DNA from: an uncultured Actinomycetes bacterium
GTDB lineage: Bacteria > Actinomycetota > UBA4738 > HRBIN12
Length of the DNA stretch: 64,000 nt
Direction of reading: 5' to 3'
Assembly: GCA_963704725.1 (NCBI GenBank)
Contig: OY969934.1
Location: 1,685,138 to 1,749,137, forward strand
Shown: piece after piece, positions 49,870 through 59,578 of the stretch
Numbering within the stretch: the first letter of the stretch is position 1
Layout: each line of letters opens with the position of its first letter
Position numbers and translations under genes: made by a program
Notes under the pieces: generated by a model
What the model was told of the DNA's origin: nothing
What the model saw: only the letters and a program-made list of their open reading frames with translations
Database searches by the model: none

Positions 49870-51816
49870 GTGGACAACTTCCAGGAGAAAGTCGCCTTCA
49901 TCTGGTCGGTGGCCGACCTGCTCCGCGGCGACTACAAGCAGTCCGAGTACGGCAAGGTCATCCTGCCGCTGACCGTGCTCCGCCGTCTCGATTCCGTGCT
50001 GGAGCCGACCAAGTCGAAGGTCCTGAAGCGGCACAAGGAGCTCCAGGGCCGCCTCGAGAACGTCGAGCCGGTGCTCACGCAGATCACCGGGCACGGCTTC
50101 TACAACACGTCGCCCTTCACGTTCCGGACGCTCCTCGACGACCCGGACCACGTCGGCGAGAACCTGCGCCGCTACATCCTCGGGTTCGACCAGGGGACGC
50201 AGGACGTGATCGCCAAGTTCGAGCTCGAGGGCCAGATCCGGCGCCTCGAGCGCTCGAACCTCCTGTACATGGTCGTCTCGAAGTTCTGCGACATGGACCT
50301 GCACCCGGACCGGGTCTCGAACATCGAGATGGGCTACGTGTACGAGGAGCTCGTCCGCAAGTTCTCGGAGCTGTCGAACGAGACCGCCGGAGAGCACTTC
50401 ACCCCGCGCGAGGTCATCCGCCTGATGGTGAACATCCTGTTCGCCGGCGACCGGGACCTGCTGGCGAAGAAGGGCGCGATCGCCACGCTGTACGACCCGG
50501 CCTGCGGGACCGGTGGCATGCTGAGCGTGGCCGAGGACCACCTCCGGGCCCTGAACCCGGACGCCAAACTCCGCGTGTTCGGGCAGGAGCTGAACGCCGA
50601 GACGTACGCGGTCTGCCGCTCGGACATGATGCTGAAGGGCCAGGACGCGTCGAACATCTACTTCGGCAACTCGTTCACCGAGGACGGGTTGCCTGACTCC
50701 ACGTTCGACTACCTACTGGCGAATCCGCCGTTCGGCGTCGAGTGGAAGAAGGTCCAGGATCGGGTCCGCCAGGAGCACGACCGTGACGGCTACCAGGGGC
50801 GCTTCGGCGCCGGTTTGCCGAGGATCAACGACGGCTCGCTGCTGTTCCTGCAGCACATGATCTCGAAGATGAAGCCGCCCGAGAAGGGCGGCAGCCGCCT
50901 CGCCATCGTCTTCAACGCGTCGCCGCTGTTCACCGGCGCCGCCGGCTCGGGCGAGTCCGAGATCCGCCGCTGGATCATCGAGAACGACTCGCTCGAGGCG
51001 ATCGTCGGCCTGCCGGACCAGCTCTTCTACAACACCGGGATCTCGACGTACTTCTGGGTCCTCACGAACCGGAAGACCCCCGAGCGCCGGGGGAAGGTCC
51101 AGCTCGTCGACGCCCGCGAGCTGTGGACCAAGATGCGCAAGAGCCTCGGCGAGAAGCGCAAGGAGATCTCGAGCGAGCAGATCGAGGAGATCACGCGCCT
51201 GTGCGCGGAGGTCCAGGAGGGCGATCGCTGCAAGATCCTGCGGAACGAGGACTTCGGCTACCGCCGGATCACCGTCGAGCGACCACTCCGCGTGCGGTGG
51301 GAAGTGACCGAAGAGACGGCCGCGACGCTCGGCGCCTCGAAGGCGCTCACGAAGCTCGACGACGATGCTCGTGAGCGGCTGCTCGAAGCCGTCGATGGGC
51401 TGAAGGGAACGTCGACGACGGATCGGGACGTATTCGCGGAGAAGGTCGCTGGAGTGCTCGACGCCATGGGGAAGTTCGGCAAGCCAATGGAGAGGGCTAT
51501 CATCGAGGCGGCGACGGTCCGGGACCCCGAGGCCCCGCTCGTGACCGACAAGAAGGGGAATCCGGAGCCCGATCCTGAGCTGCGCGACTTCGAGAACGTG
51601 CCGCTCACCGAGGACGTCGGTGAGTACATGGAGCGCGAGGTCCTCCCCTTCGTCGACGCATGGGTCGACGAGTCGAAGACGAAGGTCGGGTACGAGATCC
51701 CGTTCACCCGGCACTTCTACGTGTACGTGCCTCCCCGGCCTCTCGAAGAGATCGACTCCGATATCAAGGCGCTCGAGCAGGAGATCCTCCAGCTCCTCCG
51801 CGAGGTAGCTGAGTGA
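49870..51816 (+). CDS. hsdM: Type I restriction-modification system, methyltransferase subunit
   Basis: 648 aa; N6-adenine MTase motifs DPACGTGG and NPPFG; GTG start. Confidence 0.95.
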   Translation: MDNFQEKVAFIWSVADLLRGDYKQSEYGKVILPLTVLRRLDSVLEPTKSKVLKRHKELQGRLENVEPVLTQITGHGFYNTSPFTFRTLLDDPDHVGENLRRYILGFDQGTQDVIAKFELEGQIRRLERSNLLYMVVSKFCDMDLHPDRVSNIEMGYVYEELVRKFSELSNETAGEHFTPREVIRLMVNILFAGDRDLLAKKGAIATLYDPACGTGGMLSVAEDHLRALNPDAKLRVFGQELNAETYAVCRSDMMLKGQDASNIYFGNSFTEDGLPDSTFDYLLANPPFGVEWKKVQDRVRQEHDRDGYQGRFGAGLPRINDGSLLFLQHMISKMKPPEKGGSRLAIVFNASPLFTGAAGSGESEIRRWIIENDSLEAIVGLPDQLFYNTGISTYFWVLTNRKTPERRGKVQLVDARELWTKMRKSLGEKRKEISSEQIEEITRLCAEVQEGDRCKILRNEDFGYRRITVERPLRVRWEVTEETAATLGASKALTKLDDDARERLLEAVDGLKGTSTTDRDVFAEKVAGVLDAMGKFGKPMERAIIEAATVRDPEAPLVTDKKGNPEPDPELRDFENVPLTEDVGEYMEREVLPFVDAWVDESKTKVGYEIPFTRHFYVYVPPRPLEEIDSDIKALEQEILQLLREVAE

Positions 51817-59000: not shown

Positions 59001-59578
59001 CCCTAATGCCGCGGGTGTACGAGCGGGCCCGGGTCGCCCACCAGCGGACGTGCCCGATCGGGGAGCTGCTGGCCCGACCCGAGGACAAGCACCTCGAGTT
59101 CAAGTCCACGCTGCGGTGGGACCTGAAGACGGGGGAGAAGAGCCGTCTCGTCGAGGCGGCGTCGATCAAGACCGTCGCCGCCTTCCTGAACTCCGAGTTC
59201 GGCGGGACGCTCCTGGTCGGGGTCGGGGACGACGGGGCGGTCGCGGGCCTGGAGCCCGACTACGCCACGCTCCGCAAGGCCGGCAAGGCGGACGCGGACC
59301 TGTTCCTCCTGCACCTCAACCAGGTGCTCGAGAACGCCGTCGGGCTCGCGGCGGCCGCGAACGTCACCACCACGGTCCACCGGGTCGATGGCCACGACCT
59401 GTGCCGGGTCCACGTCGAGCCTTCGGGGCACCCCGTCGACGCCGAGGTCGCGGTCGCCGACCCGCAGGGTCAGCTCGGCAGGAAGCGCGTCTTCTACATC
59501 CGCCTCAACAACGGGACCCGGGCGATCGAGGACGAGCGGGAGCGGGAGCGCTTCGTCGCCCATCGCTGGGGCACGTAG
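56075..59578 (+). CDS. hsdR: Type I restriction enzyme R subunit fused to a C-terminal AlbA_2 / Schlafen-like domain
   Basis: 1167 aa; helicase Walker A QHSAGSGKS and DEAH box VVVDEAHSS; C-terminal ~175 aa (about 59051-59575) with EDKHLEFKSTL and GGTLLVGVGDDGAVAGLEP. Confidence 0.9.
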   Translation: MRITKEVAFEDAIEAHLLDQAGYTRGVTINYDPALAIDTAELFTFIGATQAETWEDLVQRNGGDPDVAQRRFADRLAKQIDERGTVDVLRHGVDDLGVHIRLAYFRPASGLNSDLQQKYDANRLTVVRQLHYAPDHANALDLTLFLNGLPVATAELKNPLTHQTVEHAVAQYRTDRDPRDALLGRRAIVHFAVDPDLVMMTTKLERGATRFLPFNRGGDPGATACGAGNPASPGGYATSYLWERVWERHAWLDLLSRFVHLERSVPGSKAKAAVRDATLLFPRYHQWDAVRRLEAHARAHGAGRNYLVQHSAGSGKSNTIAWLAHRLASLHDPQDRKIFEKVVIVTDRKVLDRQLQDTVYEFEHAHGVVKKVEESSKELAEALRSVEAKIVVTTLQKFPFVVDEVAALPERRYAVVVDEAHSSQTGEAAQEMKKALGGVTVETGDEGEIDPQDAVDALVEASARARGPHDNLSMFAFTATPKAKTLELFGEPPDEDGRHRPFHLYSMRQAIEEGFIVDVLEHYTTYETYFRLARAGEEDPEVPVREASKAIARYVMLHPSVVEQKAAIVVEHFRRSTRDRIGGRAKAMVVCRSRLSAVRFRLAIDAHAREHGYGDVGTLVAFSGTVTDDGVDYTEPNMNGFSESQTAERFASDEHRILVVAEKFQTGFDQPLLHTMFVDKKLEGVNAVQTLSRLNRIHPDKEDTFVLDFVNDAEQIQRAFAPYYDAAIAVPTDPNELYDAWREVDRFGVVWSEDVEALARLYFGPAATQAKLYALLDAARERFTDLDETEQEELRTWLKRFVSRYGFISQVLPMADTAMEKRYVYCRLLERVLPSAPSGSMDLGDRLAMTHLRVTRTGEHDLSLEKGGGVLRAFGEGGPGGYEDLLAPLSELIGRMNELFGADLSEADLLHLEGIGADMVANPEVQQQAAANTVENFGIEFDKRFTDAVAARMSQAEELTIRILDKPEFREEVVRALMPRVYERARVAHQRTCPIGELLARPEDKHLEFKSTLRWDLKTGEKSRLVEAASIKTVAAFLNSEFGGTLLVGVGDDGAVAGLEPDYATLRKAGKADADLFLLHLNQVLENAVGLAAAANVTTTVHRVDGHDLCRVHVEPSGHPVDAEVAVADPQGQLGRKRVFYIRLNNGTRAIEDERERERFVAHRWGT

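Follow-up and report, generated by a model that had tools for sequence, protein, structure and literature searches.

The 64,000-nucleotide stretch analysed here (the window), from an uncultured Actinomycetes bacterium (GenBank assembly GCA_963704725.1, contig OY969934.1, positions 1,685,138 to 1,749,137), carries the hsdM, hsdS and hsdR genes of a Type I restriction-modification (R-M) system: hsdM and hsdS overlap by 4 nucleotides (nt), whereas 2,963 nt lie between the end of hsdS and the beginning of hsdR. Does this distal hsdR serve hsdMS, and how did the genes in between come to lie there? We consider it likely that the locus is one complete Type I R-M system, with cargo embedded among its genes and separating them.

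The first part of the question was addressed by comparison. All window proteins were mapped onto loci with HsdR relatives, 80 from species-representative genomes and 80 from metagenomes (loci and contigs are cited below by L numbers). In 141 loci it was possible to locate where hsdS ends and where hsdR begins; the two genes are contiguous in 110 of them (estimated distance -37 to +82 nt) and separated by 239-8,212 nt in the other 31. Across 100 loci the identities of HsdM and HsdR to the window proteins co-vary (Pearson correlation 0.88, and 0.83 without the close clade), with hsdM and hsdR co-directional in all 100, and no further hsd gene was found within the window. A preliminary description of the locus had taken hsdR for the partner of hsdMS displaced by cargo, had proposed comparing hsdS-hsdR spacing in homologous systems, and had named an R subunit from an unrelated system as the finding that would overturn its view. 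The spacing comparison shows contiguous order to be the family norm and bears out the displacement, and a role of hsdR in another system was rejected because HsdM and HsdR co-vary, are mostly encoded contiguously, and have no other hsd genes near them in the window. To judge from these comparisons, the distal hsdR is the co-inherited cognate of hsdMS.

The genes from hsdM to hsdR are the following (lengths in amino acids, aa).

hsdM, 49870-51816, plus strand: 648 aa, Type I methyltransferase subunit
hsdS, 51813-53111, plus strand: 432 aa, specificity subunit with two target-recognition domains
Cys-cluster gene, 53114-53677, minus strand: 187 aa, Zn-ribbon-like N-terminus and winged-helix C-terminus
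GIY-YIG-like nuclease gene, 53682-54080, minus strand: 132 aa, with the Cys-cluster gene 4 nt downstream
vapB antitoxin gene, 54151-54378, plus strand: 75 aa, 70 nt from the divergent GIY-YIG gene
vapC toxin gene (PIN domain), 54369-54770, plus strand: 133 aa, overlapping vapB by 10 nt
DUF3024 gene, 54805-55155, plus strand: 116 aa, Pfam DUF3024
SCO5918-like gene, 55204-55680, plus strand: 158 aa, two-domain protein, first gene of the cassette discussed below
retropepsin-like aspartic protease gene, 55677-56078, plus strand: 133 aa, second gene of the cassette
hsdR, 56075-59578, plus strand: 1,167 aa, restriction/translocase subunit

Mechanical open reading frames (ORFs) are plentiful here because the region has a GC content of about 68%, and real genes were chosen by GC at the third codon position, profile matches and homologues. 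All seven genes in the hsdS-hsdR gap were judged real. In every cargo ORF, third-position GC is as high as coding regions of such a genome should show (0.80-0.90, against 0.94 for hsdM, 0.94-0.96 for hsdM and hsdR together and 0.73 for hsdS), and the four cargo proteins that lack a Pfam match at gathering level each have from 75 to more than 600 homologues. The GIY-YIG gene is set at 132 aa, in agreement with the source annotation and with 213 homologues of about that length (some named 'GIY-YIG nuclease family protein' at NCBI); the raw minus-strand ORF of 418 aa is too long. The SCO5918-like gene starts at 55204 and not at 55168, which gives 158 aa as in all orthologues. According to Pfam, NCBIfam and PADLOC profile searches, no transposase, integrase or metabolic domain is present among the slot genes.

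All three hsd ORFs are intact, with catalytic motifs present and no sign of inactivation in the sequence. HsdM matches HsdM_N (PF12161, E-value 8e-25), N6_Mtase (PF02384, 7e-59) and the PADLOC model MTase_I (PDLC03029, 7e-278), with DPACGTGG at residue 209 and NPPF at residue 285. HsdS matches Methylase_S (PF01420) in two stretches and PADLOC Specificity_I over residues 7-429 (1e-110). HsdR contains HSDR_N (PF04313), ResIII (PF04851), SWI2_SNF2 (PF18766) and T1R_D3-like (PF22679) domains and matches NCBIfam TIGR00348 (6e-59); its motifs include the PD-(D/E)xK nuclease residues D141..E155-L-K157 and, for the SF2 translocase motor, GSGKS at 313 and DEAH at 418. The nearest solved structure is the HsdR of EcoR124I, a Type IC enzyme (phmmer 6e-20 over the motor domains), which shares the nuclease-motor architecture but is distant and lacks the C-terminal Schlafen/AlbA_2 domain of the window HsdR. 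Relatives of HsdR in viral contigs are only 36-40% identical, and no relative of the protease was found among those contigs. HsdM2S would methylate host sites, and HsdR would join HsdM2S to cut unmethylated DNA.

How the cargo came to lie between the subunits is best seen in the closest relatives. In 11 contigs, HsdM and/or HsdR are about 80-84% identical to those of the window, or remains of the same island are found (L082). In each of the seven relatives that cover the end of hsdM, blastn homology to the window stops at 51813-51817, the position of the hsdM stop codon, and it restarts at 56072-56076, the hsdR start, except in L177, where it is continuous from the cassette onwards. Between these borders the window modules align singly (53181-53645, 53682-54082, 54158-54770 and 55184-56066). 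HsdS of the window is only 25-32% identical to HsdS of the relatives in which HsdM and HsdR reach about 80-84%. The slot contents in these relatives are as follows.

L170/171: Cys-cluster gene, vapB and vapC (66-81% identical to those of the window), then a UvrD-like helicase gene
L177/178: GIY-YIG gene followed by the SCO5918-protease cassette
JGI contig: DUF3024 fragment and the GIY-YIG/Cys-cluster pair
L091: split Mrr gene and the gene of a 425-aa Fic protein
L101: genes of a CAP12/Pycsar-type TIR protein and Fic
L090: genes of AbiV, a Swt1-like HEPN protein and Fic
L092: MerR-DUF433 gene, vapB-like gene and Phd/YefM gene

Gapped loci farther off have VapBC-like pairs, RHH-Doc, AIPR, DUF4357 or a GNAT toxin in the slot. 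The stretch from the hsdM stop to the hsdR start is, on these alignments, a variable slot in which the recognition domains of hsdS are exchanged, as are small modules with defence or toxin genes. The preliminary description had suggested that the cargo arose by successive insertions, and this is supported by the close relatives, which keep the frame, hold subsets or replacements of the cargo between the same two borders and align to it module by module; such variants are the pattern expected from repeated modular gain, loss and replacement. The content of the gap was only partly as first described: the minus-strand GIY-YIG/Cys-cluster pair and vapBC stand, and the supposed three-gene string upstream of hsdR, tried as a single unit, was rejected since DUF3024 travels apart from the other two genes. 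On this comparative evidence the window slot is made up of four independently mobile units: the GIY-YIG gene with the Zn-ribbon/winged-helix gene, vapBC, DUF3024, and the SCO5918-like/retropepsin cassette. The simplest mechanism would be that the slot is refilled by homologous exchange, with conserved hsdM and hsdR as flanks. We note that the 425-aa Fic gene lies directly upstream of hsdR in L090 (2329-3606), L091 (8668-9945) and L101 (7683-8960), where the window has the cassette instead; these three loci are among the relatives with the most similar HsdR.

Of the four units, vapBC is by gene order and domains a standard type II toxin-antitoxin pair: VapB matches VapB_antitoxin (PF09957, 1.2e-8) and VapC matches PIN (PF01850, 3.9e-11) and, below the cut-off, NCBIfam VapC (1.2e-11), and the copies in L170/171 are 70% (VapB) and 81% (VapC) identical. 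The GIY-YIG-like protein has GIY at residue 30 and YVG at residue 48; its matches to GIY_YIG_2 (PF20815, 0.0039, below the cut-off) and to PADLOC PDC-S14 (1.7e-5) are weak, and a copy 79% identical lies beside hsdS in L177/178. The predicted structure of its unannotated neighbour, the Cys-cluster protein, shows a Zn-ribbon-like sheet and a winged-helix domain (predicted local distance difference test score, pLDDT, of 90), and homologues are also found beside large helicase/nuclease genes (L173-L176). The DUF3024 protein matches Pfam DUF3024 (3.5e-32), the PADLOC candidate PDC-S43 (3.2e-22) and PHROG 3467, the sole match in the PHROGs search besides a weak one of the GIY-YIG protein; L019 and a JGI contig have relatives of it beside their hsd genes, and its last 17 codons persist in L082.

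The cassette is the least familiar unit. Its first protein matches NCBIfam SCO5918_fam below the cut-off (6.8e-12), PF28009 is recorded on orthologues, and 651 representative clusters were found at E<=1e-3; the name-giving SCO5918 of S. coelicolor is a gene of a cold-shock operon. A profile of seven orthologues found no solved structure, and a single-sequence AlphaFold2 model had a pLDDT of 49, too low for a fold search. The second protein has more than 400 homologues at 67-82% identity, many with PF13650 or a retropepsin-like name, and itself scores 18 bits (0.0048) against PF13650, under the cut-off of 24.3 bits. It has DTGA at residue 37, and D[T/S]GA is kept in all seven orthologues compared (six with DTGA, L177 with DSGA). 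The two genes overlap by 4 nt in all eight further contexts read (ten loci: L082-L089, L177 and L178), among them glycosyltransferase clusters and neighbourhoods with toxin-antitoxin/PycTM genes or a peptidase, with the cassette 65-82% identical across contexts. No PADLOC model matched the cassette or the Zn-ribbon/winged-helix gene, and a literature search found no link between retropepsin-like proteases and phage defence. The cargo would probably serve as toxin-antitoxin or abortive-infection back-up and also as addiction modules stabilising the island, and would be no part of the restriction enzyme.

HsdR itself has an additional domain. Its C-terminus (residues ~1003-1151, within window positions 59081-59578) matches SLFN_AlbA_2 (PF04326, 2.2e-14), and among 34 homologues the motifs E1003-x4-E1008-x-K and GVGDD (D1052/D1053) are kept with a conservation of 90% or higher. 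According to a 2026 paper (PMC13462974), bacterial Schlafen domains cleave tRNA, with E17/D22 as catalytic residues in CbCash, and more than half of defence-associated Schlafen homologues lie near R-M systems and other nucleases. From the spacing of E17/D22 in CbCash, we infer that E1003/E1008 are the catalytic residues. The window domain thus resembles the defence-associated Schlafens described there (Cash and the R-M-linked clusters) in the AlbA_2 domain, the like spacing of its acidic pair and the common association with R-M; it differs in being fused to the HsdR C-terminus, whereas the paper mentions methyltransferase fusions. A literature search found no link between HsdR and Schlafen. 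Loci whose HsdR carries AlbA_2 are more often gapped between hsdS and hsdR than those without it (16/25 vs 15/116, Fisher p=4e-7, a count that ignores shared ancestry and includes truncated contigs), and we take this association with slot cargo as a lead. Two other loci with an HsdR-AlbA_2 protein have large cargo in the slot. L042 (5291-8328) encodes an AlbA_2 regulator-like protein that stands on its own, along with a ParA-like ATPase and a nucleotidyltransferase-like protein (labels assigned by eye), and L001 (1800-10000) has 8.2 kilobases (kb) of cargo including an ImmA/XRE-like pair (by eye) and a GNAT toxin.

With hsdR so far from hsdMS, its expression has to be considered as well. The minus-strand pair converges on hsdS, with the stop codons 2 nt apart, and would block read-through from hsdS; hsdR is therefore probably transcribed from the vapB string. 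From vapB to hsdR all genes are co-directional; two of the junctions are gaps (34 and 48 nt) and three are overlaps, of which those between the SCO5918-like gene and the protease gene and between the protease gene and hsdR are 4 nt each. By this spacing, hsdR is probably the last gene of a six-gene transcript (vapB-vapC-DUF3024-SCO5918-protease-hsdR), which would be read from the 70-nt divergent region between vapB and the GIY-YIG gene or from an internal start. Other gapped loci are similar in that the ORF preceding hsdR usually has the same direction and lies at most 60 nt away. The protease/hsdR overlap is specific to the window, since L177, L178 and L082 have a spacer of about 43-57 nt instead.

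The R-M genes and their cargo are part of a larger island of 11.8 kb (47822-59628), which lies between sufB and sufD and is co-directional with them; sufC-like, sufS and sufU-like genes follow. Its flanks and left part are as follows.

sufB, 46409-47821, plus strand: left flank of the island, Pfam SUFBD_core (5e-84)
DUF222-HNH gene, 48131-49321, minus strand: Pfam DUF222 (5e-28) and HNH
ChlI-like fragment, 49362-49751, minus strand: Pfam ChlI (1e-6)
sufD, 59629-60939, plus strand: right flank of the island, 50 nt past the hsdR stop, Pfam SUFBD_core (1.8e-78)

The normal state of actinobacterial suf operons we take to be adjacency of sufB and sufD, as in M. tuberculosis Rv1460-1466. The same placement of the island is seen on the sufB side in L091, L092 and L101 and on the sufD side in L015, L090, L092, L093 and L177, and the hsdR-sufD junction is also present in L082. 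SufB is 88-96% identical in L082, L091 and L092, and in each it is followed by the same island or its remains. The DUF222-HNH and ChlI-like genes are found in the same order in L091, L092, L101, L177 and L178, with the ChlI-like piece only 50-56% identical in relatives, much below its neighbours. A short Cys/His ORF (47778-48098, minus strand) overlaps sufB at its end; since L082 has it at 64% identity, it may be a genuine small gene. Neither tRNA genes nor Rfam families were found inside or beside the island; elsewhere in the window there are an RNase P RNA (5944-6341, 225 bits) and a cobalamin riboswitch (39140-39299, 90 bits).

In the closely related contig L082 (8500-10700; SufB 96% identical), the same island has undergone two clean deletions, corresponding to window positions 48667-55102 and 56226-59521. 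It keeps a partial HNH gene, 17 DUF3024 codons, the intact SCO5918-protease cassette and both ends of hsdR, and has lost hsdM, hsdS, the Cys-cluster and GIY-YIG genes, vapBC and most of hsdR. Given the shared placement and these remains, the island is old in the clade and able to decay.

Several observations weigh against an intact, modularly refilled R-M system. The decay in L082 means that intact ORFs are no guarantee of current function, and we infer the activity of the R-M system and of each cargo gene from sequence. The hsdS ends in the spacing comparison were placed by tblastn and are accurate to within a few codons. Since the relatives are mostly metagenomic contigs or metagenome-assembled genomes, any single one may be mis-assembled. 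When the island was searched for repeats, flanking direct or inverted copies were absent apart from GC-rich matches at chance level, and no recombinase genes lie at the module borders, which leaves the exchange mechanism a proposal. A promoter/terminator scan gave one promoter-like and one terminator-like match, both inside hsdM and no more than in shuffled sequences; since it was uninformative in this high-GC DNA, the vapB-to-hsdR transcript is a reading of gene spacing only.

Three other explanations were weighed against a single R-M system split by modular cargo. In the E. coli prr locus, prrC lies between hsdS and hsdR, the very position of the slot, and the cargo or the Schlafen-like domain of HsdR could likewise be wired as PrrC-like guardians, silent as long as the enzyme is working but arresting growth or cleaving RNA once it is inhibited by a phage. 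The usual co-direction and tight spacing of cargo beside hsdR would agree with this, as would the more frequent separation of AlbA_2 HsdR from hsdS (16/25 vs 15/116) and the retention of E-x4-E-x-K and GVGDD in 34 HsdR homologues, given that Schlafens cleave tRNA and many are R-M-linked according to PMC13462974. We nevertheless hold such coupling to be unlikely, because the cargo varies and occurs elsewhere: it differs in nearly every relative, which fits independent modules better than co-evolved partners, and the same modules are found away from any R-M system. Moreover, Pfam, NCBIfam and PADLOC searches found no PrrC/RloC homologue and no ATP-binding cassette (ABC) ATPase in the slot, and the association count does not correct for shared ancestry. 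The more ambitious proposal, that the slot is a dedicated, recombination-refilled site in a vertically inherited frame within the suf operon of an actinobacterial clade and that its contents, including the cassette and the Schlafen domain, are R-M-coupled second-line effectors set off by a block of restriction, we regard as equally doubtful on the sequence evidence.

Less probable still is that the locus is a decaying R-M system, in which the cargo uncoupled hsdR, restriction was lost or silenced, and only methylation or selfish toxin-antitoxin genes persist. L082, where two deletions took hsdM, hsdS and most of hsdR and spared the cassette, is what such decay would look like, the Mrr gene of L091 is split, and the minus-strand pair breaks any hsdM-to-hsdR transcript. 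In the window, however, the hsd ORFs are full length, with catalytic motifs kept and third-position GC of 0.94-0.96 (hsdM and hsdR), and several relatives keep both hsdM and hsdR intact at about 80-84% identity despite different cargo, which argues for purifying selection on the frame.

That hsdR forms a separate system with the three genes upstream of it, leaving hsdMS an unrelated solitary methyltransferase, is very improbable and largely refuted: the SCO5918-like, protease and hsdR genes are joined by 4-nt overlaps and the cassette precedes hsdR in L177/178 and the hsdR remains in L082, but the cassette is absent at the other homologous hsdR loci examined and is found without hsdR in several unrelated neighbourhoods, the protease-hsdR overlap gives way to a 43-57 nt spacer in L177, L178 and L082, and HsdM and HsdR co-diverge and are normally encoded contiguously.

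A complete Type I R-M system split by cargo has established precedents, as embedding in Type I R-M has already been described for PrrC, for TgvAB and under the term 'guilt-by-embedding'. In EcoprrI (Type IC), the anticodon nuclease PrrC is embedded and is activated when EcoprrI is inhibited, the paradigm of a back-up defence linked to a Type I enzyme (reviewed in PMC12707154). The prr locus and the window both have a toxic effector (in the window a predicted one) embedded in an hsd locus, but only the position matches, as the window slot contains neither a PrrC/RloC homologue nor any protein combining ABC ATPase and anticodon nuclease (Pfam, NCBIfam, PADLOC). TgvAB, on VPI-2 of Vibrio cholerae, is a two-gene system that interrupts a Type I R-M, itself active, and defends independently (PMC11411939); the interruption of a Type I R-M by embedded genes is shared, whereas TgvAB is a GmrSD-like Type IV restriction system and the window cargo is predicted to be toxin-antitoxin, nuclease and protease-like. 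Genes nested in Type I R-M, BREX and DISARM systems were surveyed by Payne et al. (2024, bioRxiv 10.1101/2024.01.29.577857). The window likewise has non-R-M genes nested between the subunit genes of one system, and PDC-S43 (DUF3024) and, weakly, PDC-S14 (GIY-YIG) are PADLOC models from that survey. It differs in having four modules (seven genes) in a single slot, in a cassette and a Zn-ribbon/winged-helix gene that match no PADLOC model, and in a turnover of the slot that can be traced within a single conserved frame whose place in the chromosome is fixed.

What this locus adds is a clean natural series, with at least eight versions of one slot in one conserved frame at one chromosomal site and breakpoints at a stop and a start codon; the series lets cargo swapping be seen directly. 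By 'guilt-by-embedding', the SCO5918-like/retropepsin cassette, the Zn-ribbon/winged-helix and GIY-YIG pair, and DUF3024 become candidates, and the HsdR-Schlafen fusion family is flagged as a possible built-in back-up nuclease. If the cargo were indeed R-M-coupled effectors, the logic of PrrC would be executed by new proteins. Since the island lies between sufB and sufD, one may ask how 11.8 kb of defence genes can be tolerated, or exploited, by an essential operon.

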